The notes beneath the pieces were generated by a model that searched no databases, was not told the origin of the DNA, and was given only the letters and a program-made list of their open reading frames with translations. Source: Candidatus Atribacteria bacterium UBA6251 (GTDB lineage Bacteria > Atribacterota > Phoenicimicrobiia > Phoenicimicrobiales > Phoenicimicrobiaceae). From it: a stretch of 64,000 bases of DNA. The DNA is taken from positions 3,369-67,368 of the forward strand of contig DJVR01000034.1 in assembly GCA_002441285.1 (NCBI GenBank), read 5' to 3'. Positions 16,789 through 64,000 of the stretch are shown here, in pieces. A program made the translations under genes and the position numbers. Position 1 is the first letter of the stretch, and each line of letters starts with the position of its first letter.

Positions 16789-17190
16789 TTACCAACACCC
16801 ACGATATCTGCAAAAATGAGTTGTTTCTATATAACCGTTACTAATGATATAAACTTCTGTTTCTCCTTTTTCAAAAGTTGTAACCTCTGCTCCATCTGGT
16901 GCATCTGCAAAATAGATCCTGAAGGTGCCATTTACTTTTATATCCGGGCCAAACTGATAAGTGCCATCACCGAAATCGATAATGATTATCTTAGTATCCT
17001 TGGTAAGGATTCCCGGATCAAATTCAATAGTTACGTTATTTAAACTTACAGATCCACCCTCTTCTGCGCTTACCCACTCTTGTACCATATCTTTCTTCTC
17101 GGCAAAAACAAACGCAGTTAGAGCAAAAAGGGCAAATACAACTATGATAGAGAGTATAATATAGTGTTTCAAAGATTTATTATTTTTCAT
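16789..17190 (-). CDS. Small secreted/membrane-anchored protein of unknown function, riboswitch-controlled
   Basis: 133 aa. N-terminal signal/TM (IILSIIVVFALFALTAFVFA), a beta-rich domain, C-terminal CRYRGCW. An AGGAGGTG RBS immediately follows a GEMM-like aptamer. Confidence 0.6.
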   Translation of the reverse strand: MKNNKSLKHYIILSIIVVFALFALTAFVFAEKKDMVQEWVSAEEGGSVSLNNVTIEFDPGILTKDTKIIIIDFGDGTYQFGPDIKVNGTFRIYFADAPDGAEVTTFEKGETEVYIISNGYIETTHFCRYRGCW

Positions 17191-17194
17191 TCTT

Positions 17195-17290
17195 CACCTC
17201 CTTCGGTAATCCAGCCATCATAGCTATTAAATAGCTTTAGACCTGAGACTTTGCGTCCTACCCTTTCGGATAGTTTGCTATTATCGAGAG
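17195..17290 (-). ncRNA. c-di-GMP-I (GEMM) riboswitch candidate in the 5' UTR of the 16789-17190 gene
   Basis: Minus-strand RNA AUAGCAAACUAUCCGAAAGGGUAGGACGCAAAGUCUCAGGUCUAAAGCUAUUUAAUAGCUAUGAUGGCUGGAUUACCGAAGGAGGUG. This matches the Vc2-type consensus GGCAAACC-N-GAAA-N-GGGACGCAAAGCC-N-GGCCUAAA. The aptamer runs into the RBS. Confidence 0.7.
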
Positions 17291-17405
17291 TTATGCAAGT
17301 TTAGAACCTAAATCCATCATACCCCCACTAAAAAATTATATCATAGATAATCTTTATTTACAAAAAATACCTTAAATTTATAATTCCTATTTTTGCGTCA
17401 TTAGA

Positions 17406-20783: not shown

Positions 20784-22175
20784 TTATGGTCCAGTTACAA
20801 TAATTGACTGAAATGCATATCCGATATTTTCTTCTGAATCTTCTACTGTCAGCTGTACAAGATAAGTTCCTGCAGTACTGTAAGTATGAGTAGTTACCGG
20901 AGTAGGTGGTGTCTCATCATGTACCTCTATAGGGCTACCATCATTAAAGTCCCAGGTATAGCTGACTATAGTTGCACCAATTACCGAAGTAGTCGATTCT
21001 GATGCATCAAGTCCAACAGTAAAGGGAGCAGTTCCAGTTGCACTTGAAGGAGTAACCTTGATAACTGCATTTACTCCACTATCCACAGTAATGGTGACAC
21101 TTCCATAACCAACATTTCCTGCAGAATCCGTTATAGTTAGAACAACTATGTAAGTCCCAATATTTGTATAAGTATGAGAAGTAGTAACTCCTGTCCCGGT
21201 CGTTCCATCTCCAAAATCCCAACTATAATTAGCAGTCATAACTCCACATCCAGTTTCAAAAGTACTACCCGAAGCATCGAAATAGACTGTAAACGGAGCA
21301 GATCCTGTTGTACTCGGAGTAACCTGGATGTCCACACTTGTGACTCCTGTCTCTCCTACGGTAATTACTACTGTATCATAACCTTGTTTTCCCCAATAGT
21401 CAGTTACCGTTAATTTAACAATATAGGTACCACAACTACTATAAGTATGGGCTGCCGGCATAACTCCCGTTCCGGATGTTCCGTCTCCAAAATCCCAACT
21501 ATAACTGGCAATCCCGCGATCATCAGTAGAATCACTAGCATCGAAGATTACGGTAAAGGGTGCGGTTCCACTTACTCCAGGTATTACTTTAATCACTGCC
21601 TTTGGTGGTGTAAAGTCAATTCCTGGTTCTATAGCAGGTAAATTAACAGTAACCGATTTATTGATATTGTGACCGGCTCCATCGGTACCAAGTAAGGTTA
21701 TAGTACAAGTAAGTTCGGTTATTAAAGGATTCTTTTTTATATAATCTTTGACTTCTTGAAAATACAAAGGCATATTTTTAATTTCAGTAATTGGACCAGG
21801 GGTACCGGGAGTAGTGGATGGTTCAACATAAAAAGTAGCTCCCACCGTTTTAGTTAATGAACTTATTTTAGTATTTTCTTCATAATATTCGTATTTAAAA
21901 CCTGAACCAATAAATTCTACTTCATTTAAAGAATATACTTCCAAACTAATGGTGCCATCTTCTAAGTTAATTTCTGTATAATTCAATCTTATCTGCGCCT
22001 GGGGGTCAAAGATATTAAGAAGTCCAAAAGAAAGCCAGTTACACCCAACTAATGATATTATAAAACCTAACAATATGGTTATAAATAATATTTTATACAA
22101 ATTCTTTTTATTTTTATATTGCAAAGTCTTGTCCTCCTTTCGAATTATAATTTTGTCATTGCGAGCCTTCTGCAA
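20784..22175 (-). CDS. PKD-repeat surface (lipo)protein
   Basis: 463 aa. Lipobox-like LVGC after a hydrophobic segment. Four tandem PKD domains (YSWDFGDGTSGTG repeated three times, plus YTWDFNDGS). The annotated TTG start lies inside a dispersed repeat, so the true start is uncertain. Confidence 0.75.
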   Translation of the reverse strand: MQKARNDKIIIRKEDKTLQYKNKKNLYKILFITILLGFIISLVGCNWLSFGLLNIFDPQAQIRLNYTEINLEDGTISLEVYSLNEVEFIGSGFKYEYYEENTKISSLTKTVGATFYVEPSTTPGTPGPITEIKNMPLYFQEVKDYIKKNPLITELTCTITLLGTDGAGHNINKSVTVNLPAIEPGIDFTPPKAVIKVIPGVSGTAPFTVIFDASDSTDDRGIASYSWDFGDGTSGTGVMPAAHTYSSCGTYIVKLTVTDYWGKQGYDTVVITVGETGVTSVDIQVTPSTTGSAPFTVYFDASGSTFETGCGVMTANYSWDFGDGTTGTGVTTSHTYTNIGTYIVVLTITDSAGNVGYGSVTITVDSGVNAVIKVTPSSATGTAPFTVGLDASESTTSVIGATIVSYTWDFNDGSPIEVHDETPPTPVTTHTYSTAGTYLVQLTVEDSEENIGYAFQSIIVTGP

Positions 22176-22400
22176 GAAGGCGTGGCAATCTCAATTTTAT
22201 TTTTTCAATTATATGCCAACTTAGATTCCCGCTCTGAATTACCGCTTTCGCGGGAATGACATAATCAAATTAAAATGACATTTAATATTTTTCTTATAGG
22301 GGTCGGATTTATCCGACCCGTTTTAATTGCGGGTTCGATGAATCAAACCCCTACATTTCACCCTCACCCTACCCTCTCCCCTCAAGGGAGAGGAAATAGA
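22150..22400. repeat. Composite of dispersed GTCATT-hairpin repeat modules plus GC-rich hairpins
   Basis: GTCATTGCGAGCCTTCTGCAAGAAGGCGTGGCAATCTCA at 22155-22193. A reverse-orientation GTCATTCCCGCGAAAGCGG module at 22226-22262. Hairpins GGGTCGGATTTATCCGACCC and CCTCTCCCCTCAAGGGAGAGG. Related copies at about 27260 and about 32150. Confidence 0.75.
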
Positions 22401-27238: not shown

Positions 27239-27259
27239 ATCTACTCTTTATTTCCTTTC

Positions 27260-27375
27260 TGTCATTCCCGCGAAAGCGGGAATCCATCTTCTCCGTCATT
27301 GCGAAGAATCCACCCTTTCTGTCATTGCGAGGGTGGCACTCAAGTAATATTGAGTGCCACCCGTGGCAATCTCAT
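27260..27375. repeat. Three tandem GTCATT-hairpin repeat modules upstream of pilM
   Basis: GTCATTCCCGCGAAAGCGGGAATCCATCTTCTCC, GTCATTGCGAAGAATCCACCCTTTCT, and GTCATTGCGAGGGTGGCACTCAAGTAATATTGAGTGCCACCCGTGGCAATCTCA. Confidence 0.8.
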
Positions 27376-27425: not shown

Positions 27426-27654
27426 ACTCGATAATTTTCTTTCTTGTTTTATTCTTTCTCGATACTATCTTATGTTGTTTCTTTTCTGTTTTCTTTCTTG
27501 ACGCGATAATGTTCTACTAAATGCCAAAGCTATCTCTTTAAGCTCGTAATTCTTTCCCACACTATAACTATCCGCTATTATTATACGACAACCTACGATT
27601 CAAGCCCTTATCTTCTCTTGGACTCGATACTCGATACTATATGCTCGATACTAT
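27426..27654. promoter_or_regulatory. Array of CTCGATACT direct repeats in the pilM upstream region
   Basis: (C)TCGATA(C/A)T occurs at least five times (27426, 27459, 27623, 27630, 27644) within about 230 bp, 190-420 bp upstream of the pilM start. Confidence 0.4.
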
Positions 27655-27732: not shown

Positions 27733-28956
27733 TTAATATACCTCTCTCCAGGATGTTTTTTTAAAGAAACGGTCACCGGTAGTTGTAAATTGATTCATAG
27801 ATGTATCATAATTAATTATTGATTTATTACGAACATATACAGTATCTGCAATCACCGAACCGGTAACTTCACATCCATTTTTTAATTCAATAAAACCTTC
27901 AGAATTACCATCAGGTAAAATTGATTGAACTATTCCTTTAAGAATAGATGATTTAGCGTAAATTTTGATATTTCCCTGTGCTACTAAAGCAAGTGCGGTA
28001 ATTGGGTCATCTGCATTAATATAAGTACTGTCATTATTAATATTAAAAGTTGCACCTTCTTTAATTTCCACATTACCAGTAGCAATAATTGCACCATTGT
28101 TAACATTTATTGTTGAGCCATTTTTAGCTTCTAAACTTCCTTCAATATAATGTATTCCCGTCCAATTTTCTATATCACCATTTCCCAGAATAACATCACT
28201 TGTGTGATAATGAATATTGCCTGATGCGGCTTCATCAGCCAAAGCTCTCACTTTTAATTCATCATAATCAACTGTAGGAATAGTCTCTTTTGGAACCCCC
28301 GTATTACTACCATCACTAGTATCATCTAAGTCATTATTTTTTCCGGAAGAAGTAGCGTTTCCATCATAATTTTCATCAAACTTACCCGAAACTAAGATAT
28401 CATCATTAGAATGCACATCACCAGTAATATCAGGCCCAGGAGTGCCCTGGAAAAGAATTATTTTATCAGCAAGAATGGCATATTTATACATCGCTATTAT
28501 TATGTAATCAATTTCCGCGGTTACTTCTATTTTTCGCTTTCCTGAGGAAAATTTACCTCCTAAAACTACTCCAGTTGAAGTAATTTTAATCTTATCAGTA
28601 TCAATATCCTCAATGCTTACTTGATAATATTCGGTAGCTGTCCCTGGGTCAGGTTCATTAGTAGGACGCCACTCTATTCCCTCTCCACCATTTTCAACGA
28701 TTGTATTTAATTTCCATAGAGCGTCTTCAATGCCTGCATCAGCCAAATAAAAAGCTTTATTAGATTCCCGTTGAAGGGTAGACAACTTCGTATCATTATT
28801 AGTCATAGTAAGCAGGGCTACGGCTAAAGTAACTAATACAAAAACAAAGATTAAAGTTGTCAAAAGAGCCATGCCTTTTTGATTTAACAGAATATTTCTT
28901 ATTTTTTTATCTTTAATCTTCTTTTTTCTTTTTTTCATTTCTATCACCCCTCTCAA
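27733..28956 (-). CDS. PilX-like minor pilin / pilus assembly protein with beta-helix-like repeats
   Basis: 407 aa. PilX_N-type N-terminus (QKGMALLTTLIFVFVLVTLAVALL). Repeat-rich C-terminal region (GNVEIKEGATFNINND). Confidence 0.6.
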   Translation of the reverse strand: MRGVIEMKKRKKKIKDKKIRNILLNQKGMALLTTLIFVFVLVTLAVALLTMTNNDTKLSTLQRESNKAFYLADAGIEDALWKLNTIVENGGEGIEWRPTNEPDPGTATEYYQVSIEDIDTDKIKITSTGVVLGGKFSSGKRKIEVTAEIDYIIIAMYKYAILADKIILFQGTPGPDITGDVHSNDDILVSGKFDENYDGNATSSGKNNDLDDTSDGSNTGVPKETIPTVDYDELKVRALADEAASGNIHYHTSDVILGNGDIENWTGIHYIEGSLEAKNGSTINVNNGAIIATGNVEIKEGATFNINNDSTYINADDPITALALVAQGNIKIYAKSSILKGIVQSILPDGNSEGFIELKNGCEVTGSVIADTVYVRNKSIINYDTSMNQFTTTGDRFFKKTSWREVY

Positions 28957-29072: not shown

Positions 29073-29645
29073 CTATAAACCATAATTTCTCAGATTAACA
29101 TCCGTATTTAAAGTTATATCAGGTTTGCCATCATCATCAACATCTACTTTTAAATTTATGTGTATTTTAGATATTTTAGGCAATGTAGAGATATCAGGAG
29201 AATCATATTTTACTCCATTAGAATCATAGTATTCAAAAATATCTTCCTCACTTATTTTAAGTACATTATCAATTAAAGGATTGCTGGTTAAATTTTTTAT
29301 TCTTTGTATGGTAGTACCAAATAAAGCATAGGTAACAGAATAAGCGGAACTTCCACCTAAAGGAGGAATATCAACAGTAACAGAAATTTCTGAACCACTA
29401 GATATATTACTACCCTCTCTTATTTCTCTTACCATTCTATCCATAGCCTGACGTGCATTTCTCTGTGCCTCTAATTGACTCTGGCCTGCTACCCAGGATT
29501 TAGCTCCCCCTGTGAAAAAAGTTACCAATCCTAAAACAATTAATCCTAGAATAGCCACTACAACCATCATTTCGATTAAACTAAAACCTTTTTGTTTATA
29601 CTTACAATGAATTATCTTCATAATATTTCCCTTTTTAAATATCAC
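29073..29645 (-). CDS. Prepilin-type minor pseudopilin (PilV/PilW/GspJ-like)
   Basis: 190 aa. Class III signal KQKG|FSLIEMMVVVAILGLIVLG. Confidence 0.75.
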   Translation of the reverse strand: MIFKKGNIMKIIHCKYKQKGFSLIEMMVVVAILGLIVLGLVTFFTGGAKSWVAGQSQLEAQRNARQAMDRMVREIREGSNISSGSEISVTVDIPPLGGSSAYSVTYALFGTTIQRIKNLTSNPLIDNVLKISEEDIFEYYDSNGVKYDSPDISTLPKISKIHINLKVDVDDDGKPDITLNTDVNLRNYGL

Positions 29646-29671: not shown

Positions 29672-32296
29672 TTATTCTACTACTGTTATTGGTACAGTAT
29701 ATTCATATGCTCCAAAATTAGTATAAAAAGTAACTGATAATGATTTACCTTCCATATTTGTGCTAAAGGTCAATCTGATAGTAGATTCACCAGGTAACAA
29801 ATTTGCATTGATATTATCTTCGATATGGGGGCTAGTAGAATTTCCGGTATCAATGATAGGGTCATAATCGTCTGCATTATATGGACTTTTAATTTCGATT
29901 TTCCTTAGTTTCGAAGGATCATAGTCCCACTCAACCTTCATACTACTTAAATTAAGTGTAGGTCCATTAACTTTAATATTAAAAGTGACAATTTTATTGT
30001 TTAACCAATATTTTAACGAATTATCTACTAAGATTAAGTTTATTATATTTACTGGAATATTTACAGTTGAAGATGGCTGTGTAATTATATCACCTGAAGC
30101 TTCTGCTTCTACTATTACTGTACCTGGATTAATAGTCGATTGTAAAGTGACTTCTGCAATTCCATTTTCTACATATACCTGTTTGAAGGAAGTTCCATCA
30201 GAAAATTTTCCTGACGTCTCTCCTTCTGTAATTGAAAAATCGACTACACCTGAATAATCAGGAACTATAATACCAGGTTCATCCACTATTGTTGCAGTTA
30301 TTATACAAGTATCCCCACCTACAAAGATATATGCAGGATTAGCAACCAAATTAATATGATGTGGTGCTGATTTTTTGTGAAATAACACCTCTATTTCTAT
30401 TGGATTGTCAGGATTTCCTGGTGGTCCATCTGCATTAGGTGGTAAATCACTTGAATAAATCTTAATACGTGCAGTAACTGTAGATGTAACTTCATAAGGA
30501 TATAAAGTTGCAGTAGCCATACCCCCGGTTAATGTTATTTCCTGAGTAGATTCACCAGAGGAAAAAGACCCTATTCCATTCGTGATTTTAAATGTGATGA
30601 AATTACCGTAAACTATATCCCCATCTTCAGATTTCATAATAGCCGTAATATCAGAAGGTATTATTGTATCTTCATCTAATTCAATAATTGATGGGTCAAA
30701 AGTAACATCGATATGGTGAGCTACAAGCGGACTTAAAATATTTATTTTTGTAGATCCTGAAATTAATTCCCCCCCACTGTCCTTTGCGCTAATTGTTATT
30801 TCTTGAGGAAACTCTCCAATTGAGGATGCTTTAAAAATACAGGTTTGAGAGTTTTCACCTTTAAATGTTAAATTAATAGAACCTGTACTACCGTTTAAGG
30901 TACCATAATCATCGGGGAAGTCAGTAATTACAACAGTTTTTGGAATACCAGCCTCACCAAAACTAACCGGTTTATTATTTTCATCTACAATAGTTACAGT
31001 TATAGTAGTTTCCTCATTCGGATAAATAGACTTTTTCTTTGTAGAAACTAAGATAGATTTAGCATCTCCAGTAAAGGTTACTTCAGTATATCCCATATCT
31101 AAATCAGGAGCTGATGCAGTTATCCCTACTACTCCAGGAGTTCCAGTGGACATTAAGTTTACAGTTGTTGGATTAGTAGGGTCAGCAGATACAGAATTAA
31201 TAGTTGAAGTTGATAAAGAACCAATGTCAGGGTTAGAAACGTTCAATGTTATTGTTCCTGAATATGCTATAGGAGTTTTATAATCAGCTTTTACTACAGT
31301 TACATTGATAGTTGAATTTTCACCTACAGGAAGAATTCTATCTTCTTCGGTTGCAGGTTCAAGAATTATTCCTACAGCTCCAGTGGTTACTCTAATATTA
31401 ACTGTATCAGTTACATCCTCGGGTCCTCCTAAATTAGCTGAAGCTTGAATCTTTTCTATGCCATCTATAGATTCACCTGGTTCAAATGCAAAAGAGTAAA
31501 ATGTAATTTTAGCTTTTCCATTAGTTGTATGGACAATTATAGTGTCTGGGTCATCTTTAGTTCTTGATGCATTATTTATATATCCAACTGGGTTATAATC
31601 ATCATTTGGAGTAGGGATAATAAAGGAAAAACTAATATCTCCTTCCCAATCTGTTATAGTATTACCATTATTGTCTTTAATTTCTGCAAAAAGTGCAACC
31701 TCAGAATCAGGTATAATAGTATAATAAGGAGAGGCATAAAGAATAATACCAGCAGCATCAGAAACTTTACTTGTATTTGGCTTATTATATAATATCGTTG
31801 AGGCTTCTTCTGTTTTTATATTTCCTTTTCTATCCATCCAACGAACCTGCGTAATTACTTTTTTCAAAGTTACTACTTCGCCTTTTTTTTCTAAGTCTAA
31901 AACAATAGAGCCTCTATGAAATTTTGTGCCAGGGATAAGAGTAATGGGTTCATCTTTTACTTTATTAAAATCCATATTTTTAAAATCTTCTATCGTTTCC
32001 CGCAAATAGTTAGTAGCAACTGTCCGGTCTCGGGCGTCAGCCATTCCCATAAAGCCGGTGCTATAGGCGTAAAAGATTCCCACAATGGCCAGAGCTAAAA
32101 TAGCTACCGCTACCATTAATTCAACTAAGGAAAAACCTTTGAGATTGCTTCCCCTGCTTTCGCTGGTGCAGGCTTGCTTCGCTTCTCGCAATGACAGATA
32201 AGATGGATTCCCTCTTTCGCGGGAATGACAGAAGGGAAACAGCCCTCGCAATGACAGGGAAAATTTTATTTTTTTTGATAATATTTTATTTAACAT
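29672..32296 (-). CDS. Giant prepilin-type protein with Ig-like/Big repeats (putative pilus tip adhesin)
   Basis: 874-aa ORF. Prepilin cleavage/methylation motif NLKG|FSLVELMVAVAILALAIVGIF at about 32135, followed by about 800 aa of beta-rich repeat domains. The annotated N-terminal 55 codons overlap the 32150-32275 repeat, so the true start is probably near 32190. Confidence 0.7.
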   Translation of the reverse strand: MLNKILSKKIKFSLSLRGLFPFCHSRERGNPSYLSLREAKQACTSESRGSNLKGFSLVELMVAVAILALAIVGIFYAYSTGFMGMADARDRTVATNYLRETIEDFKNMDFNKVKDEPITLIPGTKFHRGSIVLDLEKKGEVVTLKKVITQVRWMDRKGNIKTEEASTILYNKPNTSKVSDAAGIILYASPYYTIIPDSEVALFAEIKDNNGNTITDWEGDISFSFIIPTPNDDYNPVGYINNASRTKDDPDTIIVHTTNGKAKITFYSFAFEPGESIDGIEKIQASANLGGPEDVTDTVNIRVTTGAVGIILEPATEEDRILPVGENSTINVTVVKADYKTPIAYSGTITLNVSNPDIGSLSTSTINSVSADPTNPTTVNLMSTGTPGVVGITASAPDLDMGYTEVTFTGDAKSILVSTKKKSIYPNEETTITVTIVDENNKPVSFGEAGIPKTVVITDFPDDYGTLNGSTGSINLTFKGENSQTCIFKASSIGEFPQEITISAKDSGGELISGSTKINILSPLVAHHIDVTFDPSIIELDEDTIIPSDITAIMKSEDGDIVYGNFITFKITNGIGSFSSGESTQEITLTGGMATATLYPYEVTSTVTARIKIYSSDLPPNADGPPGNPDNPIEIEVLFHKKSAPHHINLVANPAYIFVGGDTCIITATIVDEPGIIVPDYSGVVDFSITEGETSGKFSDGTSFKQVYVENGIAEVTLQSTINPGTVIVEAEASGDIITQPSSTVNIPVNIINLILVDNSLKYWLNNKIVTFNIKVNGPTLNLSSMKVEWDYDPSKLRKIEIKSPYNADDYDPIIDTGNSTSPHIEDNINANLLPGESTIRLTFSTNMEGKSLSVTFYTNFGAYEYTVPITVVE
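32150..32275. repeat. Three GTCATT-hairpin repeat modules (reverse orientation) at the 5' end of the giant pilin gene
   Basis: Reverse complement reads GTCATTGCGAGGGCTGTTTCCCTTCT, GTCATTCCCGCGAAAGAGGGAATCCATCTTATCT, and GTCATTGCGAGAAGCGAAGCAAGC...GAAGCAATCTCA. Confidence 0.8.
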
Positions 32297-32479
32297 ACTA
32301 TCACCTCAACAATTAGTCTGCCGGTCGACCAATCTGCCAGTCTAAATAGTCATTAGTAAATAGTGGATAATCGTTAGTAAAGAAAATACAAAAAATAAAT
32401 TCAAAAAAACGTAAACCATACACCTCGTAGAACAGGCATCATTAAGCCCACAATTTATGCCCGAAAGCTAACGACTAAT

Positions 32480-32965
32480 TTACCAATTCTCCGGAGGGTC
32501 TGGACTTATTCTTACTCGGGCAGTTACCGGTGTCATAATCACATAAAGAATCTTTCCTCTTTTATTTTTCAAAGTAACTGTTCCTCCCATACTAGGGACT
32601 CCATTCGGATAAAAATAGACTTTATTGTTTGTAAAATTAGTCTTAAATAATTCTACTCCTTCTAATTTTATTTCTTTATAAAGTTCACTTTCACTTCCTT
32701 TAAGTATTTTATATTTATTTGAGGAAGTTGGCCAATTAAAAGTTGTATAAAATTCTATTTTGTAATATACACCCTCATAAAATGCCCTCGACTGAGTATT
32801 TTTTAATTCTGAACTTAAAAGTGCTGCTGCTGTGTTTAATTTATTCCATTGTATCAAATAATCTAATCCGTTTATGCCAAGACCAAGCAGTAAGGATATT
32901 ATACCTCCTACGACCATTAATTCGATAAGGGTAAAACCTTGTTTAAGACCAGGGCTACGCTTCAT
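32480..32965 (-). CDS. FimT/GspH-like minor pseudopilin
   Basis: 161 aa. Class III signal LKQG|FTLIELMVVGGIISLLLGL. Confidence 0.75.
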   Translation of the reverse strand: MKRSPGLKQGFTLIELMVVGGIISLLLGLGINGLDYLIQWNKLNTAAALLSSELKNTQSRAFYEGVYYKIEFYTTFNWPTSSNKYKILKGSESELYKEIKLEGVELFKTNFTNNKVYFYPNGVPSMGGTVTLKNKRGKILYVIMTPVTARVRISPDPPENW

Positions 32966-33093: not shown

Positions 33094-33861
33094 TTATCCG
33101 CCTAAGTACCAGAATAGAATTTTATCACCAATTAAAATTGCAATTAACGAGCCTGCTACTATAAATGGTCCAAAGGGTATTGTCTCTCCCCTGTTTTTCA
33201 TTTTTAAGATAATTAAAACAATTCCGGTTAATGCACCTAACAAATAACCAAAAAATAAGGATAAGGAAGTATATCTCCAGCCCAGGAAAGCTCCAATCAT
33301 AGCTGCCAGTTTAATATCACCTCCACCCATTGCTTCTTTTTTAAAGAGCCATTCTCCTATCAAGGCGATGAATAAAATTGCACCTCCTCCTGTTACTATG
33401 CCCAGAGCTGAATCCCACACTGAGATATGCTTTACCAAAAAACTGATCATCAATCCTATTACTATCCCTGGAAGAGAAATCTCATTCGGGATAATCTCTT
33501 CCTTAAAATCGATAAAGGCAATAATAATTAGTGCTGAAGATAAAGCCATATAGACTAAAGTTTGCACCCTAAAACCATATTTTAAATAAAGAAGTAAATA
33601 GATTATGGCATTTAAAAATTCTACCACAGGATATTGGAGAGAGATCTTATTTTTACAATTACGGCATCTACCTTTCAGTAAGAAGTAACTTAATAAAGGT
33701 ATATTGTCTTTGGTGCTTATCCTGGTATTACAGTACGGACAATGAGAAGCAGGATAAACTATCGATTCTTTTCTGGGTAGACGATATATACATACATTAT
33801 TAAAACTTCCTACCACCAGACCGAGAACGATTAATAGAATAATATTTATAACATAGTACAT
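33094..33861 (-). CDS. pilD: Prepilin peptidase (A24 family) PilD
   Basis: 255 aa. N-terminal zinc-binding CPYC...CRNC tetracysteine. Polytopic membrane domain with catalytic Asp motifs. Confidence 0.85.
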   Translation of the reverse strand: MYYVINIILLIVLGLVVGSFNNVCIYRLPRKESIVYPASHCPYCNTRISTKDNIPLLSYFLLKGRCRNCKNKISLQYPVVEFLNAIIYLLLYLKYGFRVQTLVYMALSSALIIIAFIDFKEEIIPNEISLPGIVIGLMISFLVKHISVWDSALGIVTGGGAILFIALIGEWLFKKEAMGGGDIKLAAMIGAFLGWRYTSLSLFFGYLLGALTGIVLIILKMKNRGETIPFGPFIVAGSLIAILIGDKILFWYLGG

Positions 33862-36839: not shown

Positions 36840-37262
36840 CTATTTCCTCGCAGTTAAAGGATTATCATATACATTACCATTATCATTGGTATTTCTTCCA
36901 TTAATAGTAAAAACATTATTACTATAAGTAACCCATACTTCTCCAGCAACGGCAGCATCCTCACTTGCTGGGCAAGTAGTTTGTGCGTTTCCAGTTACAG
37001 GATTATATATACCAGCATTTGCAAATACTACAGATGATAGTTTATCAGGTGTATCAATATCGGTTACTGGTCTATCAGCTAATTCTGCTTGAATCAAAGT
37101 TTGAATTGTTCCTGCATTGGCTTTAACTATCGCATTTTTTGCTTTATCCTGCTGGCCAGTATAAAGTCTTAATCCTAAGAGTGCTAATACACCGATGATA
37201 GCTACTACGACCATCAATTCGATTAAGGTAAAACCTTTTTTATTCTTTCTAAAATTATACAT
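36840..37262 (-). CDS. pilA: Major type IV pilin PilA
   Basis: 140 aa. Canonical class III signal KKG|FTLIELMVVVAIIGVLA. Short pilin with a C-terminal Cys. Confidence 0.9.
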   Translation of the reverse strand: MYNFRKNKKGFTLIELMVVVAIIGVLALLGLRLYTGQQDKAKNAIVKANAGTIQTLIQAELADRPVTDIDTPDKLSSVVFANAGIYNPVTGNAQTTCPASEDAAVAGEVWVTYSNNVFTINGRNTNDNGNVYDNPLTARK

Positions 37263-37404: not shown

Positions 37405-37500
37405 ATCGGTAGTTAGACAGTCATAACCCTTTTTTTGAAGAGATTAAGTTATTAGGTTTTAGACCCTAACTTTGCGCCCCATTCTTTCAAATGGTTTACC
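37405..37500 (-). ncRNA. c-di-GMP-I (GEMM) riboswitch candidate, proximal copy upstream of pilA
   Basis: Minus-strand RNA GGUAAACCAUUUGAAAGAAUGGGGCGCAAAGUUAGGGUCUAAAACC... aligns with Vc2 GGCAAACCAUUCGAAAGAGUGGGACGCAAAGCCUCCGGCCUAAACC. Confidence 0.7.
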
Positions 37501-37597
37501 TTTCTCAATTTTTTTATGACCCTGGATTTGATCACCTCCTGTTTTTCTTTTCATCTGCTAGTACATTTTTGTGTCTTATTTAAATAAATAAAAGGAA

Positions 37598-37700
37598 AGT
37601 CGGTAGTTTGGCAGTCATAGCAATCATAGTAATAATTACTTTAGACCCATAACTTTGCGCCCCATCTTTTCAGATAGTTTGCCTTTTTCAACTTTTAAAA
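37598..37700 (-). ncRNA. c-di-GMP-I (GEMM) riboswitch candidate, distal copy upstream of pilA (tandem)
   Basis: Minus-strand RNA AAGGCAAACUAUCUGAAAAGAUGGGGCGCAAAGUUAUGGGUCUAAAG..., the same consensus. About 200 nt upstream of the proximal copy. Confidence 0.7.
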
Positions 37701-37879: not shown

Positions 37880-38332
37880 TCAGGTATTTTCATAAACAAA
37901 GATTTGAAAATCATCACTGTTAAATCTTTGAAATTTTACACTATTTACCGCAGGTTTAACTACAAAGACTCTTTCATTATTATCATGAGGGTCAATTGGG
38001 TAAGCAAAAAAACCTTTTCTCTCTGGATTAAAACTATGGGTAGAACCATAAAAATTTTCGCCATCTTTAAAGATGATGACAATTTTACGTTGAGTAGGAA
38101 TAGGCTGAGGTTGTCCTTCGAAGGTTCTTACTTTTTGATAATCTTTATTCCCTTGATAATCTTTAACAAAAAATACTGCTTTTAATTCATTTACATCTAC
38201 TTCAACTAGTTTATCTCCGTATTCTTCCAAAGGATGAAGGTGAAAAATATCTTTGTTGGGATTAAAGTCAGTAGACCAACCTTTGATGATGGAGCCATCC
38301 TTGTATTTTACTACCATTTTGTTGGGTATCAT
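37880..38332 (-). CDS. Uncharacterized protein with internal tandem duplication (paralog B)
   Basis: 150 aa. Two ~65-aa repeats of the pattern VVKYKDGSIIKGW...F.P / IVIIFKDGENFYG...FFAYPIDP. Paralogous to 38391-38816. Confidence 0.6.
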   Translation of the reverse strand: MIPNKMVVKYKDGSIIKGWSTDFNPNKDIFHLHPLEEYGDKLVEVDVNELKAVFFVKDYQGNKDYQKVRTFEGQPQPIPTQRKIVIIFKDGENFYGSTHSFNPERKGFFAYPIDPHDNNERVFVVKPAVNSVKFQRFNSDDFQIFVYENT

Positions 38333-38390: not shown

Positions 38391-38816
38391 TTAAAAATCG
38401 TTTTCATTAGTTTTTATTTTTACAATAGCTTTACGAACTACAAAAATGCGTTCATTATTATCTTCCGGGTCAAGGGGAAAGACAAAAAATCCATCTTCAT
38501 ATCTTCCAAAATTATAACAGGTGCCATAGATCTCTTCCCCATCTTCAAAAAAAATAACTACTTTTTTTTGACTGGGTGTTACCTTGAATCTTTCATCATC
38601 AAAGTTTCTTACTTTCTGATAATCTTTATTACCGAAAAAATCTTTAACAAAAAAGATTGCTTTTAGGGGAGCAAATACGAGATTAAGAGTCTCCTTTGAG
38701 CTATATTCCATCAAGGGGTAAAGGGTAAAGAAATGACGTTCCGGACTAAAATCTTCTACCCAACCTTTAATAATTTCTCCATTTTTATATTTTACTACTA
38801 CCTTCTTTTTCAACAT
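38391..38816 (-). CDS. Uncharacterized protein with internal tandem duplication (paralog A)
   Basis: 141 aa. Same two-repeat architecture (VVVKYKNGEIIKGW... / VVIFFEDGEEIYG...FFVFPLDP). Confidence 0.6.
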   Translation of the reverse strand: MLKKKVVVKYKNGEIIKGWVEDFSPERHFFTLYPLMEYSSKETLNLVFAPLKAIFFVKDFFGNKDYQKVRNFDDERFKVTPSQKKVVIFFEDGEEIYGTCYNFGRYEDGFFVFPLDPEDNNERIFVVRKAIVKIKTNENDF

Positions 38817-43000: not shown

Positions 43001-44752
43001 TTAGGAGGTAACTACTCTTAAAACTTCGCTTATGGTAGTAATCCCTGCACAAACTTTTTTTATACCATCCTCCTTTAAGGTACACATACCTTCTTCAAGT
43101 GCAACTTCCTTAAGTTTTTTATTGTTTACGTTCTTAGTAATCAATTCTCTTATAGTGTCAGTGATAATCATTAACTCGAAGAGGGCAATTCTACCCTTAT
43201 ATCCTGTGTGCTTACAATTAGAACACCCTTCACCTTGGTATAAAGTTATCTCCGAACTTCTTATCTCATAGTCATTCATTATTTCTTGTATTTCGGGAGT
43301 TACTTCTAATACTTTTTTACATTGGGGGCAGATTCTTCTTACCAATCTTTGCGCAATAATACCAATTACTGAAGAAGAGATTAGAAATGGTTCAATTCCC
43401 ATATCGATTAATCTTATCACTGAACCGGGAGCATCGTTAGTATGTAGAGTACTTAGCACTAAATGCCCGGTAAGTGCTGCCTGGACTGCAATTTCGGCAG
43501 TTTCTTTATCTCTAATCTCTCCTACTAGCATAATATCAGGGTCCTGACGCAAAAAACTTCTTAAACCTGCCGCAAAAGTAAGTCCTATTTTTGGTTTAGC
43601 TTGAATCTGACTAATTCCCTTTAATCTATATTCTACTGGGTCTTCAATAGTCATAATCTTTTTTTCACTGGAATTCAATAAATTTAAAGCGGTATATAGG
43701 GTAGTAGATTTTCCACTTCCAGTAGGACCAGTAACCAGAATAATACCATTTGGCTTACTAATTAAAGAAACAAATTTGGGAAGAATATCTTTGGACAAAC
43801 CTAAAGAGTCTAAGTCTAATAAAATGCTCGCTGGATCTAAGATTCTTAATACTACACTCTCTCCATTTACAGTAGGGATAGTAGAAACTCTAATATTTAT
43901 ATTTCTTCCCCCCACTTTAACTTGAATTCTACCATCTTGCGGTAATCTTCTTTCGGCAATATCTAAATCAGACATTATTTTTATTCTAGAAATAACAGCT
44001 AAATGTAAATTTTTGGGTAGGGTCATTACATCGATTAATATCCCATCAATGCGATAACGCACTCTAAGGCTTTCTTCTCCAAATAATTCTATATGAATAT
44101 CACTGGCTTTCTCTTTAACTGCTCTCAAAATAATCAGATTAACCAGGGCAATTACTGGCGCTTCTTCGCTTTTACTTACTTCCGCAATATCACTAATTTC
44201 TTTTTCATCTTCTTTTAAAACGGTAACTTGCATATTTTCCAGTTTACCAATTACCTGATCCCATTCTTCCGTAATTCCATATACTTCATCTAAAGCTCGA
44301 TTAATATCTTCACCAAAAGCTAATACCGAATCAATATCATATCCTAATCTAATTTTTAATTCATCATGCGCAAAAACATCTAAAGGGTTTGCCATAGCTA
44401 CCAGTAATCTGTCTCTCTCTTTATCAATAGCAATAAGCTGATGTCTTCTAGACATCTCTTCAGGAATTAAGACTACTATGGTAGGATCAATATTTATTTC
44501 ATTTAAATTTACGTATTTTACCCCAATTTCATCAGCTAAAGCAAGCATCATTTCGTCTTTTTTAAGTATACCCAAATCAATAATTACCTTTTGTAATTCA
44601 TTACCACTATTTTTTTGAATTTTAATAATTCTATCTAATTGCTCATCATTGATTAAATTTCTCTTATATAAGATATCTAACAGGAAATTGCCCGTGATAC
44701 TTTTACTTATGTTTTTTTTCATTCTTCCTCTCCTAATGAATGCAAAGTGCAA
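43001..44752 (-). CDS. pilB: Type IV pilus assembly ATPase PilB (GspE family)
   Basis: 583 aa. N-terminal GSPII_E_N domains, Walker A GPTGSGKSTTLY, tetracysteine CPQC...CSNC. Confidence 0.9.
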   Translation of the reverse strand: MHFAFIRRGRMKKNISKSITGNFLLDILYKRNLINDEQLDRIIKIQKNSGNELQKVIIDLGILKKDEMMLALADEIGVKYVNLNEINIDPTIVVLIPEEMSRRHQLIAIDKERDRLLVAMANPLDVFAHDELKIRLGYDIDSVLAFGEDINRALDEVYGITEEWDQVIGKLENMQVTVLKEDEKEISDIAEVSKSEEAPVIALVNLIILRAVKEKASDIHIELFGEESLRVRYRIDGILIDVMTLPKNLHLAVISRIKIMSDLDIAERRLPQDGRIQVKVGGRNINIRVSTIPTVNGESVVLRILDPASILLDLDSLGLSKDILPKFVSLISKPNGIILVTGPTGSGKSTTLYTALNLLNSSEKKIMTIEDPVEYRLKGISQIQAKPKIGLTFAAGLRSFLRQDPDIMLVGEIRDKETAEIAVQAALTGHLVLSTLHTNDAPGSVIRLIDMGIEPFLISSSVIGIIAQRLVRRICPQCKKVLEVTPEIQEIMNDYEIRSSEITLYQGEGCSNCKHTGYKGRIALFELMIITDTIRELITKNVNNKKLKEVALEEGMCTLKEDGIKKVCAGITTISEVLRVVTS

Positions 44753-51471: not shown

Positions 51472-53187
51472 TTAACCTGCTACTCTTAGAACTTCTTCTA
51501 TAGTAGTAATCCCTTGAAGAGCTTTCTCTAAACCACTTTCCCTCAAGGTTTTCATCCCTTTTTTAATGGATTCTTCCTTGATTATGTCACTGGAAGTTTT
51601 GGATAGAATTAGTGAGCGTATCCTCTCATCTAGCTCCAGGATTTCATAGATAGAAGTTCTACCATAATAACCAGTATCTTTACATAAGGGACAACCTGCT
51701 CCTCTATATAGCTTTACCTGGTTATTCTGATCCAAATCTAATTCTTTTAATATCTCTGGAGGAGGAGGATATTCTTCTTTGCATTTTTCACAAATCACTC
51801 TCACCAATCTTTGGGCTAATACCCCAATTACTGAGGAAGAAATGAGGAAAGGTTCAATGCGCATATCTACCAACCTGGTTAATGCACTGGCTGCATCATT
51901 GGTATGTAAAGTACTTAAAACCAGGTGCCCCGTTAAGGCTGCCTGAATAGCTATCTCAGCAGTTTCTCGATCTCTTATCTCTCCAACCATAACAATATCT
52001 GGATCCTGTCTTAAAATTGATCTTAAGGCATTAGCAAAGTTTAAATTTATCTTCGGTAGAATTTGAATCTGATTAATACGGTTCAGCTTATATTCAACTG
52101 GATCTTCAATGGTAATGATATTTTTCTGTTTATAGTCCATTCTGTTTAAAGCCGCATATAAGGTTGTAGTTTTGCCACTTCCAGTAGGCCCAGTAATTAA
52201 AATAATCCCATAAGATTTGTTAATCATATTTTTAAATTGATTAAGTTGAGGAGTGGAAAAACCAAGTTGTTCTAACTCGATTAAACCTTTACTTTTATCC
52301 AGTAATCGTAATACTGTTTTTTCACCATAAATGGTGGGGATAGTAGAAACTCTAATATCCACCTCTTTACTACCAAATTGAACCTGGAAACCACCATCCT
52401 GGGGAAGCCGCCTTTCTGCAATATCCATCTTGGATAATATCTTTATTCGAGAAACAATAGCGGATTTTACTTTGAAAGGTAAATTTCTGATATCATGTAA
52501 GATTCCATCAATACGAAATCTTACCAGTATCCCTTTTTCATTAGGTTCAAGATGGATATCACTAGCCCGGTCTTTTACCCCTTGCACAATTAACATATTT
52601 ACTAATTGAATTACCGGTGCTTCTCTACTGATAGCTTCTAATTCTCGGAGGTCTTCTTCCCTCTCTTCCTCTTTAAGGATTACCTCGGTATCTAACTTAT
52701 TAAGAATATCATCATATTCTCCTAATTTATAATAACTATTAATGGTATTAATGATATCCTCTTCATCAGATAATACACATTTGACTTTATTTTTCTTAGT
52801 AATGCCTTTTACAAAATCAATGGCATGCACATCAAAGGGATTGGCCATAGCGATTACTAATTCATCTTTATCTACGCTGAGTGGAATTAATTTAAATTGT
52901 AGGGCAATTTTCTCTGGAATAACAGAAATTATTTCCGGATCTATGACCAGTTTGGTTAGATCTACATACTCAGTTTCGTAGATATGCTGCAAGACTTGAT
53001 AAAGCTCTTCCTTAGTTAAAGCTCCCATCTCAATTAAAATCTCCCCTATCTTTTTATTATTTCCTTTTTGTTGAGATTTGAGAGCTTTTTCTAATTGTTG
53101 AGTGGTAATAATTCCTTGGCCAACCAATATTTCTCCCAATTTTTTATTGGAATATTCTTTTCTTATTCTTTCCATAATCATCACCAA
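51472..53187 (-). CDS. Second GspE/PilB-family secretion ATPase (paralog)
   Basis: 571 aa. GSPII_E_N domain, Walker A GPTGSGKTTTLY, CEKC...CPLC. Confidence 0.85.
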   Translation of the reverse strand: MVMIMERIRKEYSNKKLGEILVGQGIITTQQLEKALKSQQKGNNKKIGEILIEMGALTKEELYQVLQHIYETEYVDLTKLVIDPEIISVIPEKIALQFKLIPLSVDKDELVIAMANPFDVHAIDFVKGITKKNKVKCVLSDEEDIINTINSYYKLGEYDDILNKLDTEVILKEEEREEDLRELEAISREAPVIQLVNMLIVQGVKDRASDIHLEPNEKGILVRFRIDGILHDIRNLPFKVKSAIVSRIKILSKMDIAERRLPQDGGFQVQFGSKEVDIRVSTIPTIYGEKTVLRLLDKSKGLIELEQLGFSTPQLNQFKNMINKSYGIILITGPTGSGKTTTLYAALNRMDYKQKNIITIEDPVEYKLNRINQIQILPKINLNFANALRSILRQDPDIVMVGEIRDRETAEIAIQAALTGHLVLSTLHTNDAASALTRLVDMRIEPFLISSSVIGVLAQRLVRVICEKCKEEYPPPPEILKELDLDQNNQVKLYRGAGCPLCKDTGYYGRTSIYEILELDERIRSLILSKTSSDIIKEESIKKGMKTLRESGLEKALQGITTIEEVLRVAG

Positions 53188-61018: not shown

Positions 61019-62083
61019 TTAGTAGTTATAATTATAATGTTCTTTTTCAAATACTTTTTTATCAATTGCTTTTCTTAAGGCATCTTCTCGACTAATCTTT
61101 CCCTCCATTAACAAGTCTTTCAAGGATTGATCCAGGCTTTGCATACCATCTTTTTTACTAATTTGAATAATTGATTGAATCTGATAGGTCTTATTTTCTC
61201 TAATCAAGTTTTTTATAGCTGGAGTAGCAAACATTATCTCCAAGGCTGGGGCTCTTCCTTTTTCATCTAGAGTAGGCAAAAGGGTTTGAGCTACTACACC
61301 TAATAAAGCACCAGCTAATTGCATTCTTACTTGATTCTGTTGATGAGGAGGAAATACGTCAATTATTCTATCGATAGTATCTGATACACTGATAGTATGT
61401 AAAGTAGAAAATACTAAATGACCAGTTTCAGCAGCAGTAAGAGCCATAGAAATAGTTTCAAGATCCCTCATCTCTCCTACCAGTATTACATCAGGGTCCT
61501 CTCTTAATGCACTACGTAAAGCATCAGAAAAGCTTTTAGTATGAGCCCCTATTTCTCTTTGAGTAATTAAACAGTTTTTATGTTGATGAATAAATTCAAT
61601 AGGGTCTTCAATGGTAATAATATTATCATAACGTTGAGTATTAATTATATCTATTAAGGTGGCTAGGGTGGTAGATTTTCCACTTCCCGTAGGTCCAGTG
61701 ATTAAAACAAATCCTTTATCTTTTTCACAAAAATTAGCTAGAACAGAAGGTAATCCTAATTCAGATAGAGATTTAATCTTTTCCGGAATTAATCGAAAAG
61801 CTCCTCCTTCTCCTCTCCGGTGCTTAAATAAATTTACTCGAAAACGGGCAACACTCTCTAATTCATATGACAAATCTAATTCCCCATTAGTTTCGAAATC
61901 TTTTTTTTGATTTTCATCCAAAATACTATAAATTAAACGGTGCACCTCTTCTTTAGTTAATTCGGGGAACTTCAATTTATTTAGTTTTCCATTAATTCTT
62001 ATTACTGGGGGTATACCAACATTAAGATGTAAATCAGAAGCATCATTTTCTTTGGCAAGAGTTAATAAATCATTTAAAATCAT
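61019..62083 (-). CDS. pilT: Twitching-motility retraction ATPase PilT
   Basis: 354 aa. DASDLHL, Walker A GPTGSGKSTTLA, PilT AIRNLIRE motif. Confidence 0.9.
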   Translation of the reverse strand: MILNDLLTLAKENDASDLHLNVGIPPVIRINGKLNKLKFPELTKEEVHRLIYSILDENQKKDFETNGELDLSYELESVARFRVNLFKHRRGEGGAFRLIPEKIKSLSELGLPSVLANFCEKDKGFVLITGPTGSGKSTTLATLIDIINTQRYDNIITIEDPIEFIHQHKNCLITQREIGAHTKSFSDALRSALREDPDVILVGEMRDLETISMALTAAETGHLVFSTLHTISVSDTIDRIIDVFPPHQQNQVRMQLAGALLGVVAQTLLPTLDEKGRAPALEIMFATPAIKNLIRENKTYQIQSIIQISKKDGMQSLDQSLKDLLMEGKISREDALRKAIDKKVFEKEHYNYNY

Positions 62084-62986: not shown

Positions 62987-64000
62987 TTACTTTTGGTAAA
63001 ATTCTTTTTTATCTATCGCTCTTAATATAGCTTCATCTCGACTAATTTTCCCTTCAATAAGCATACTTTTTAAAGATTGATCTATACTGATCATTCCATC
63101 ACTTCTACCCATCTGAATAATAGAAGCAATCTGATGAATTTTATTCTCTCTGATAATATTACGGACAGCTGGAGTAGCTATCATTAATTCAATAATAGGC
63201 ACCCTTCCTCCTCCATCAATAGTGGGTAATAGAGTCTGAGCAACAATACCTAAAAGTGATTCGGCAATTTGTGTTCTAATTTGATTTTGCTGGTGGGGTG
63301 GAAAGACATTAATAATTCTTTCTACGGTTTCTGCGGCATTATTAGTATGCAGGGTAGAAAATACTAAATGACCAGTTTCAGCGGCAGTAACCGCCATCGA
63401 GATAGTTTCTAAATCTCTCATTTCACCTACTAAAATAACATCTGGATCTTCTCTTAATGCGCTACGCAAAGCGCTGGCAAAAGAATGAGTATGTGATCCA
63501 ATTTCTCTTTGATCTATAACACAATTTTTATGTTGATGAATAAATTCTATAGGATCTTCGATAGTAATAATATGTTTATATTGTTCTTTATTAATCATAT
63601 CGATTAAAGTAGCCAAGGTAGTAGTTTTACCACTGCCAGTGGGACCGGTAATTAAGACAAAACCTTTGGGCCTTTTAGTTAAATAACTTAATTCTTTCGG
63701 TAGATTTAATTCTTCCAGTGTCTTTATCTTTTCTGGAATCAATCTAAAGGCAGCTGATTCTCCATTACGGGTACGAAAAATATTCACTCTAAAGCGAGCA
63801 ACATTTTTTAATTCGTAAGAAAAATCTAATTCATAATATTTAATATATTTAGTCAGTTGTTCTTTATCCAGGATACTAAAGATCATTTCGTGAACGTCTT
63901 CTGAAGTTAATTCGGGTAGGTTTAGTTTTTTTAAATCACCATTAATACGGAGAATTGGAGGTACTCCTACTGAAATATGCAAATCGGAAGCGTCTCTCTC
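62987..64000 (-). CDS. PilT/PilU-family ATPase, second paralog (N-terminus beyond the window end)
   Basis: Walker A GPTGSGKTTTLA, AVRNIIRE. The frame stays open to position 64000 (...ERDASDLHISVGVPP), so the gene is truncated by the window edge. Confidence 0.85.
   Translation of the reverse strand, partial: ERDASDLHISVGVPPILRINGDLKKLNLPELTSEDVHEMIFSILDKEQLTKYIKYYELDFSYELKNVARFRVNIFRTRNGESAAFRLIPEKIKTLEELNLPKELSYLTKRPKGFVLITGPTGSGKTTTLATLIDMINKEQYKHIITIEDPIEFIHQHKNCVIDQREIGSHTHSFASALRSALREDPDVILVGEMRDLETISMAVTAAETGHLVFSTLHTNNAAETVERIINVFPPHQQNQIRTQIAESLLGIVAQTLLPTIDGGGRVPIIELMIATPAVRNIIRENKIHQIASIIQMGRSDGMISIDQSLKSMLIEGKISRDEAILRAIDKKEFYQK

Follow-up and report, generated by a model that had tools for sequence, protein, structure and literature searches.

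In the modular pilin concept, a carrier pilin module is grafted with effector modules (Raynaud et al. 2021, PMC8179133), and a survey of such proteins counts over 1,200 of them in 264 architectures, including an 860-residue example with multiple repeats (PMC8179133). PilB and PilC of Streptococcus sanguinis are built in this way, in that a small class III pilin module carries bulky further modules, not of pilin type, whose presumed place of display is the pilus tip. CofB and TcpB, large minor pilins of type IVb pili, are described in the passages of two papers that summarize them as tip-located proteins that initiate assembly and dock an effector (PMC8179133, PMC10191384). The products of H-I-J-K operons also form a tip-located complex, which primes filament assembly and is capped by a subunit without Glu at mature position 5 (Glu5) (PMC10191384). 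Here, we analyze a gene on the minus strand of a 64,000-nucleotide stretch of DNA, referred to below as the window, from Candidatus Atribacteria bacterium UBA6251 (assembly GCA_002441285.1, contig DJVR01000034.1, positions 3,369 to 67,368). This giant gene (29672–32296, stop codon at 29672–29674) encodes a prepilin-type protein that is very probably a modular minor pilin. The explanation that we favor on balance is that it specifies an I-type modular tip pilin with a repeat-bearing leader that would be removed by the prepilin peptidase PilD. The giant protein adds a well-conserved new member to the class of modular pilins, which is already known, and its leader exemplifies an uncommon form of in-frame repeat insertion, one located in a signal peptide.

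The initial annotation of the window, a model's reading of the letters and of a program-made list of open reading frames (ORFs), had proposed a very large prepilin-type protein with a mature part of about 820 residues, rich in beta structure, behind a class III signal ending in NLKG. The ORF list holds an 874-residue ORF with an ATG start at 29672–32296 (−), and the mature part is indeed 820 residues long. Residues 50–75 read SNLKG↓FSLVELMVAVAILALAIVGIF, where the arrow marks the cleavage site; the motif NLKG↓FSLVELMVAVAILALAIVGIF is therefore present as claimed, with Gly54 at −1, Phe55 at +1 and Glu at mature position 5. The protein scores 26.8 bits with Pfam N_methyl over residues 52–75 (cutoff 21.2) and 21.5 bits with TIGR02532 (cutoff 16.3), and the peptidase site, G↓FSLVE, lies at 32120–32137 (−). 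The leader itself (32135–32296, −), which the initial annotation had counted as 55 codons, comprises 54, carries a net charge of +8 and ends in Gly54. In an alignment of 90 family members, F1, L3, E5, L6 and M7 of the mature protein are invariant. The composition of the mature part is dominated by Ile (11.3%), Thr (10.9%), Ser (8.4%), Val (7.6%), Gly (7.3%) and Asn (6.7%), and beyond the N-terminal helix nearly all of it is modeled as beta structure.

A homology search with the mature part returned 249 proteins. Among the best 120 of these, about 100 are full-length, at roughly 760–875 residues, and the others are shorter fragments; these 120 come from subsurface and sediment metagenomes, and the few that are named are Atribacteria. 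The exact window protein, long leader included, is present on 9 public contigs, and the closest species-level genome match is an uncultured Atribacterota metagenome-assembled genome (MAG) with 55% identity and the same gene order. A scan of a genome collection with a single protein found two loci, and a metagenome scan found at least 21. The pilin module is the most conserved part of the family, with an identity to the window protein of 70–78% (0.78 in the N-terminal helix alpha1 and 0.70 in the pilin sheet). Identity is 0.51–0.56 in the first two of the domains that follow (D1–D2; 0.51 in D1), 0.35–0.38 in D4–D5, with the minimum of 0.35 in D5, and 0.42 in the last domain. A conserved anchor with variable distal parts may be read as the pattern expected of an exposed adhesin. 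As a separate observation, a 5.4-kb contig binned as 'Promethearchaeota archaeon Loki_b32' (L002, NJBH01000071.1) holds a fragment of this bacterial pilin family at 54% identity; wrong binning of an Atribacterota contig is the probable explanation.

The Ig-like (immunoglobulin-like), Big or other beta-sandwich domains that the initial annotation had expected from a structure prediction are what AlphaFold2 returned. The full model, built with the family alignment, has a mean predicted local distance difference test score (pLDDT) of 87.7 and a predicted template modeling score of 0.49, the latter leaving the arrangement of the domains relative to one another uncertain. In mature numbering it consists of a helix (3–52), a four-stranded sheet (62–116) and then six sandwiches, and a model of the N-terminal part (pLDDT 87.1) likewise presents about 115 residues as a predicted pilin fold (pilin module, 31775–32134, −). 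Five tandem Ig-like sandwiches follow, at approximately 121–252, 253–357, 358–468, 469–588 and 589–697 (30044–31774, −; pLDDT mostly 85–95), and the protein ends in a further sandwich at 698–820 (29675–30043, −) that has no assignable family. At the level of sequence, only D5 (residues 647–744 of the giant protein) comes near the Pfam thresholds, with matches to Big_1 (26.3 against 34.9), Invasin_D3 (27.9 against 33) and GH2_C5; D3 and D4 have weak Big_1 matches, and D1 and D2 have no Pfam match, their Ig-like fold coming from the structure model. A Foldseek comparison of the full model with the PDB found multi-Ig and MG-domain proteins only (alpha2-macroglobulins, complement, ciliary proteins and the S-layer protein SbsB). 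These generic matches confirm a string of beta-sandwiches and give it no more specific identity. The best PDB profile match of the C-terminal domain (E=0.008) was to an ABC-transporter binding protein, which we take as chance, and we rejected a cohesin identity for this domain (E 0.03), which appeared in only one of 26 orthologs and had no credible PDB profile match. The tandem Big_1/Invasin_D3-like domains recall the extended stalks of invasin and intimin. The likeness is confined to the fold: the giant pilin is anchored by a pilin helix rather than an outer-membrane beta-barrel and has no C-type-lectin-like domain at its tip.

Which minor pilin the module represents can be approached from profile matches, relatives and gene order. 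Among NCBIfam models, GspI, XpsI, ComGE and PilV are the most consistent matches, appearing in 24–26 of 26 orthologs, always below cutoff. When a profile of the 125-residue pilin module was searched against 1.84 billion representative sequences, it found the giant family itself at E below 1e-19 and also stand-alone prepilins of 113–160 residues that align over the whole module, at E from 1e-13 to 1e-9. The ten stand-alone prepilins that were scanned all have PilV, GspI, ComGE or XpsI as their best match; several of them span the full GspI profile, and one exceeds the PilV cutoff. Foldseek gave no significant match for the pilin module alone, and the matches of a PDB profile search with it were confined to pilin alpha1, with E values above 0.1. 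Downstream of PilD (33094–33861, −; A24_N_bact 4.3e-36, Peptidase_A24 1.8e-22), the minus strand carries in succession a GspH/ComGD-like minor pilin (32480–32965), the giant gene, a 190-residue prepilin in the position of a J/PilW-type subunit (29073–29645) and a 407-residue GspK/PilX-like large minor pilin (27733–28956). This last protein matches PilX_N and, weakly, GspK; its signal reads G↓MALLT, with Thr instead of Glu at position 5. The giant gene thus lies between an H-type and a J-type gene with a K-type gene lacking Glu5 after them, and so holds the 'I' position in a minor-pilin operon of H-I-J-K type. The order H, giant gene, J, K (again without Glu5) and PilM is also kept in Atribacterota MAG L001 and in JGI loci.

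Together, the model matches, the stand-alone relatives and the synteny make an I-type assignment likely, and for the I-type class combined with a location at the tip we consider the case somewhat better than even. The initial annotation's reading, a very large pilin-anchored minor pilin with the potential to prime the fibre and display adhesive domains, is supported by the slot between the GspH-like and GspJ-like genes, the PilD gene upstream, the predicted pilin fold, the whole-length homology to stand-alone PilV/GspI-type minor pilins of 121–131 residues and the Ig-like string. Like GspI, PilV (of the FimU-PilVWX set), PilI and ComGE, the giant pilin has the same operon position, Glu5 and a predicted alpha1 followed by a small four-stranded sheet, but the known members are about 100–140 residues long without a C-terminal extension, and the giant pilin falls below every curated cutoff. 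It differs from S. sanguinis PilB and PilC in that its carrier would be the I-type core minor pilin within the H-I-J-K set of a type IVa pilus (T4aP) cluster of the diderm kind, and its cargo is about six Ig-like sandwiches instead of a single vWA or lectin module, with no ligand-binding domain that can be named. With CofB and TcpB it shares the design of a large minor pilin in which a pilin domain precedes beta-repeat or beta-sandwich domains. These proteins, however, belong to type IVb systems without an HIJK complex, no sequence relation to the giant pilin was detected, and CofB acts as a trimer whereas the giant pilin would be expected in a hetero-complex with H, J and K.

The leader is the second unusual feature of this gene. 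The initial annotation had described GTCATT-repeat modules upstream of the cleavage site, and an array of them is confirmed at about 32263–32140. This in-frame array (32140–32263, −), which resembles repetitive extragenic palindromic (REP) elements and is also delimited by comparing filled with empty sites, consists of half a B module followed by one A module (TGTCATTCCCGCGAAAGAGGGAATCCA) and then one complete B module (TGTCATTGCGAG...GCAATCTCA), read as FSLSLRGLFPFCHSRERGNPSYLSLREAKQACTSESRGSNL. The window holds 4 copies of the motif TGTCATTSCSNG, where 0.04 would be expected, and the G+C content of the leader repeat stretch is 52%, compared with 32% for the window. The frame in use is the basic one, LSLRGAKRRSNLS; the other two frames would give CHCEERSDEAIS and VIARSEATKQSQ. 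We also considered a Tat-like reading of 'RRSNL' in the B module and rejected it, as the motif fits poorly and the window copy has no twin arginine.

The initial annotation placed the true start at a TTG near 32190. There is an in-frame TTG at this point (32189–32191, −; codon 36), but we judge it an unlikely start: the Shine-Dalgarno (SD) sequence, the conserved ATG and the open frame all favor ATG 32296. The SD sequence GAGGTGA (32301–32307, −) lies four bases before this ATG, and there is no SD-like purine run within 5–10 nucleotides (nt) upstream of TTG 32191. The mature protein is identical whichever of the two codons is used. We surveyed the leaders of 108 homologs with a recognizable cleavage motif. 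Canonical leaders of 10–15 residues are present in 53 (for example MLKINKKLSKKG↓FSLIELM), and 54 have the same first residues (MLNKILSKKIK or MLKINKILSKKIK) followed by 1–4 repeat modules before G↓F, giving leaders of 21–72 residues. The longest natural leader is 72 residues among start-checked gene calls and 78 in one uncorrected call. Because predicted proteins are biased towards open frames, we turned to DNA loci found through motifs of the mature part. In 21 orthologous loci, filled or empty, a GGTGGTGAT/GGAGGT-like SD sequence lies 3–14 nt before the same ATG, and the SD sequence, the ATG and MLNKILSKK are common to orthologs with and without an insert. The stretch from the ATG to Phe+1 is open and in frame in 12 of the 13 independent insert-bearing loci, and its lengths are of eight kinds (87, 114, 141, 147, 153, 162, 174 and 231 nt); the window, at 162 nt, is an additional in-frame case. 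Had translation begun inside the repeats, there would be no reason to expect an ATG frame kept open across eight lengths. Three of the 12 in-frame loci (L024, L025 and L027) are ones whose public gene calls (P0002, P0004 and P0016) begin at an internal Met of alpha1 (MVAV...). The SD sequence, ATG, repeats and G↓F frame upstream are intact, so these calls are caller artefacts, and a start called inside alpha1 accounts for the absence of N_methyl annotation from those entries.

The modules themselves point in the same direction. Leader copies of the B module measure 27, 33, 54 or 60 nt, multiples of three in 12 of 12 cases, compared with 4 of 9 for intergenic B modules (Fisher's exact test, about 0.006, on copies that are not fully independent). 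Filled and empty sites can be compared directly between P0039 on the one hand and P0043 and P0042 on the other, whose proteins are 90–91% identical and whose DNA after the cleavage site is about 95% identical. Here, a 111-nt insert lies exactly between the codons for Lys(−2) and Gly(−1), and the junction shows no evident duplication of the target. Long leaders carry a net charge of +4 to +11 and have no long hydrophobic run. The positive-inside rule applies to leader peptides, and long basic leaders are compatible with a leader that stays in the cytoplasm (PMC10191384). The shared SD sequence, ATG and MLNKILSKK, together with modules that are in frame and free of stops in 12 of 13 loci, make it most likely that translation includes the repeats and that the prepilin peptidase afterwards takes off what they encode. 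A start at the ATG with translated repeats accordingly appears probable to us, judged from these sequence comparisons.

The repeats of the leader belong to a wider family. A second array in the window (27247–27375, +) is intergenic, runs opposite to the genes and lies immediately 5' of the ribosome-binding site of pilM, and a third lies between the secretin gene and a PKD-domain gene (22154–22274). The pilM-side site is also occupied in four other loci (L004:4740–4960, L006:5450–5730, L009:6390–6660 and L014:8420–8540). In the window and in these four, the arrays end about 10–20 nt from the pilM SD sequence and run reverse to the genes; this site is a second conserved repeat hot spot of the pilus operon. 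Further arrays of the family are found in at least 15 related loci. Intergenic B modules keep an ATTGC/GCAAT clamp although the stems that it encloses are unrelated in sequence, the pattern of a hairpin preserved by compensatory changes as judged by folding energy; two examples fold into hairpins of −33.5 kcal/mol (z −7.3) and −16.8 kcal/mol (z −3.1). A modules carry a hairpin of the GCGAAAGC type. Such behavior of the B and A hairpin modules resembles that of REP elements or of MITEs (transposable elements of the miniature inverted-repeat kind). In the window, the B module of the leader is a degenerate copy whose folding does not surpass that of shuffled sequences (z +0.84), which fits a passenger rather than a structured regulator. 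When the hairpin strengths of leader and intergenic copies were compared, the difference was not clear enough to claim. Rfam has no family that matches the repeat region, and a literature search for the repeat core GTCATTGCGAG retrieved unrelated primer sequences only. We identified no transposase or terminal inverted repeat for the family, although no search directed at transposases was made.

On the tree of the mature protein, the insert state requires 27 changes, compared with 30 for shuffled labels. The nearest neighbor has the same insert state in 48 of 90 cases, and pairs at 85–91% identity differ. By these measures, the presence of the insert is essentially uncorrelated with the relatedness of the mature protein. 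The approximately 100 nt upstream of the SD sequence of the giant gene are also a mosaic between loci. The uncorrelated insert state and the mosaic upstream region suggest a hot spot at which inserts are often gained and lost, or at which recombination takes place. Short AT-rich direct repeats occupy these 100 nt or so upstream of the SD sequence, CTCGATACT/ACTATATACT in some loci and (A/C)AGATTGGT/AATTGGT in others. They occur at 32300–32345 and 27555–27650 of the window and upstream of L007, L008, L011, L020, L024, L010, L016 and L025, and they differ between loci with about 95% identical coding sequences. Short palindromic repeats in coding genes have a precedent in the Rickettsia palindromic elements and in in-frame MITE/REP insertions (Ogata et al. 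2000, reviewed in PMC10969869). As described in the part of the review that covers them, the Rickettsia insertions are tolerated because the added peptide leaves the folded protein undisturbed (PMC10969869). Relative to that description, the insert of the giant gene differs in lying in a cleaved class III leader, at a hot spot of 1–4 modules that is filled in about half of the orthologs.

In the mechanism that we propose, translation would start at ATG 32296 and read through about 124 nt of in-frame REP-like modules between Lys(−2) and Gly(−1). The resulting leader of 54 residues, basic and hydrophilic, would stay in the cytoplasm and be cut after Gly54 by PilD, and the repeat-encoded peptide would thus be absent from the mature protein. 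As the leader is cut off, a mobile repeat can be tolerated and can come and go among orthologs. The mature giant pilin would then join H, J and K in the complex that primes and caps the pilus, and its Ig-like rod of about 700 residues, roughly 20–25 nm, would project from the tip as an adhesive or contact element. No gene for PilY1 or another adhesin was found in the pilus cluster and no PilY1-type gene in the window, and the giant pilin may stand in for such a protein in this cluster. The parallel with the non-pilin tip adhesins PilY1/PilC concerns the expected role only, that of a large adhesive protein on a minor-pilin tip complex. Unlike them, the giant protein is itself a pilin and has no PilY1 beta-propeller, for which Pfam and NCBIfam gave no match in it and the model, all beta-sandwich beyond the pilin module, offers no counterpart. 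It would be a functional analogue at most. For an adhesin function as such we see an even chance.

Several points weigh against this mechanism. The giant protein itself scores only 17–18 bits on the GspI and PilV models against cutoffs of 44–52, with mainly alpha1 covered; the scores obtained with the GspI, PilV and ComGE models span 17–23 bits, and neither Pfam nor PDB profile searches recognize a ligand-binding family in the distal domains. The in-frame evidence is partly non-independent, since module subtypes have fixed lengths and the protein set was ascertained by gene callers. Leaders of 54–78 residues are, to our knowledge, far longer than those of characterized prepilins. Finally, the leader ORF contains an A8 run (TCAAAAAAAATAAAA, 32269–32276, −), and two of the related loci, L004 and L030, differ by one A in this homopolymer (A7 against A8) while being almost identical over the SD sequence, ATG and leader, at 97% mean identity over a 200-nt alignment. 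The A7 version (L004:150–165; compare L030:420–440) puts the ATG out of frame and reaches a stop. The difference could be a sequencing error or slipped-strand variation.

The unusual length of the leader also speaks for a start at TTG 32191 or at the first-module TTG. Reading the B module from its own TTG supplies a basic leader of canonical length, 19 residues (MREAKQACTSESRGSNLKG), in the correct frame, such a TTG is present in every insert-bearing ortholog, and the modules upstream would be an untranslated 5' leader RNA. We consider this unlikely given that the strong, conserved SD sequence stands before the ATG and none before the TTG, that MLNKILSKK at the ATG is common to orthologs without an insert, and that the stretch from ATG to TTG is open and in frame in 12 of 13 loci over eight lengths. 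A repeat inside the 5' end of a gene, and public calls that begin at the alpha1 Met in P0002, P0004 and P0016, might instead suggest an annotation artefact or a decaying gene, a pilin pseudogene broken by a mobile element. This is effectively refuted: those calls are artefacts of the caller with the upstream frame intact, a frame of 874 codons stays open at 32% G+C, the identical protein occurs on 9 contigs, and the full-length orthologs, about 100 among the best 120 of 249, show a conservation gradient typical of a functional protein.

Two further alternatives concern what the repeats or the protein do. The array could be a functional switch, compatible with the ATG start, in which hairpins, rapid module gain and loss and slippage in the A run tune or phase-vary the tip subunit. 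An insert state unrelated to the relatedness of the gene (27 against 30 changes, 48 of 90 neighbors, pairs at 85–91% identity that differ), the second fixed position that the family takes in several loci, right ahead of the ribosome-binding site of pilM, a 5' region that folds better than shuffled sequences (z = −2.75) and the one-A frameshift between the near-identical L004 and L030 would all suit such a switch. Yet the leader B copy of the window is degenerate (fold z +0.84), the frameshift is a single homopolymer case that may be a sequencing error, half of the orthologs are without any insert, and REP-like elements are commonly polymorphic at hot spots without function; we regard the switch as improbable. 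Doubtful, too, and a little more so, is its extension to the whole 5' end as a hot spot of variation, where gain, loss and reshuffling of modules would set or switch the amount of tip adhesin. Equally doubtful is the idea that the mosaic upstream 100 nt and A-run slippage add to an on/off or dosage switch at the level of the population, one made of selfish repeats within a discarded part of the protein; the hints for this view are weak ones, chiefly the lability of the insert and the single A-run frameshift. The protein, for its part, might not sit at the pilus tip at all, being instead an envelope protein held in the inner membrane with a periplasmic Ig rod, or a subunit of a short secretion-type pseudopilus. 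Its tip location is deduced from sequence, an 820-residue subunit must pass, or sit under, the secretin, and the I-type assignment draws on weak model scores and synteny. But the cluster is of T4aP type (PilM/N/O, an AMIN-domain secretin, PilB-like ATPases and T2SSE-family ATPases of the shorter, PilT-like kind), no variation is seen in Glu5 or in the assembly interface of alpha1 across 90 orthologs, and other modular pilins are built into filaments (PMC8179133), and we think a location elsewhere quite unlikely.

If the I-type modular tip pilin is confirmed, a core I-type minor pilin would itself carry a long adhesive rod, which would provide a PilY1-independent tip equipment for uncultured subsurface Atribacterota and enlarge the modular pilins by a conserved family with a well-predicted structure. 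A cleaved signal peptide would also emerge as a safe harbor for mobile repeats within a coding sequence. The natural series of leaders, which spans 10 to more than 70 residues while the proteins are otherwise almost the same, would offer a test set for the effects of leader length and content on peptidase recognition and targeting. For annotation, the family carries a warning, as several public calls start inside alpha1 and lose the prepilin motif.

The window as a whole is chromosomal; it contains genes for tRNA synthetase, Lon and S1 and includes the type IVa pilus cluster. Besides the genes described above, the minus-strand cluster includes two PilB-type ATPases, a shorter PilT-like ATPase and PilC, c-di-GMP-I riboswitches with a 140-residue prepilin gene, and an O-antigen-ligase/TPR protein near PilD; PilM, PilN, PilO and the AMIN-domain secretin follow the GspK-like gene. 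Two tandem c-di-GMP-I riboswitch aptamers (37405–37510 and 37599–37693, −) score 60.4 and 76.8 bits, where the gathering score is 35, and lie upstream of the 140-residue prepilin gene (36840–37262), which probably encodes the major pilin. A stretch at 17243–17292, upstream of an ORF at 16789–17190, is weakly similar to the riboswitch region (repeat family D8). Two paralogous DUF6982 genes (37880–38332 and 38391–38816, −), encoding 141 and 150 residues and about 80% identical in stretches of their DNA, are placed between response-regulator-sized ORFs and the riboswitch-controlled pilin gene. The PilB-type ATPase genes, with MshEN and T2SSE domains, lie at 43001–44752 and 51472–53187 (−), and Pfam confirms a third, shorter T2SSE-family (PilT-like) gene at 61019–62083 (−). 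An ORF at 62987–63982 (−) has DNA repeats (families D2–D4 and D7) in common with the ATPase genes.

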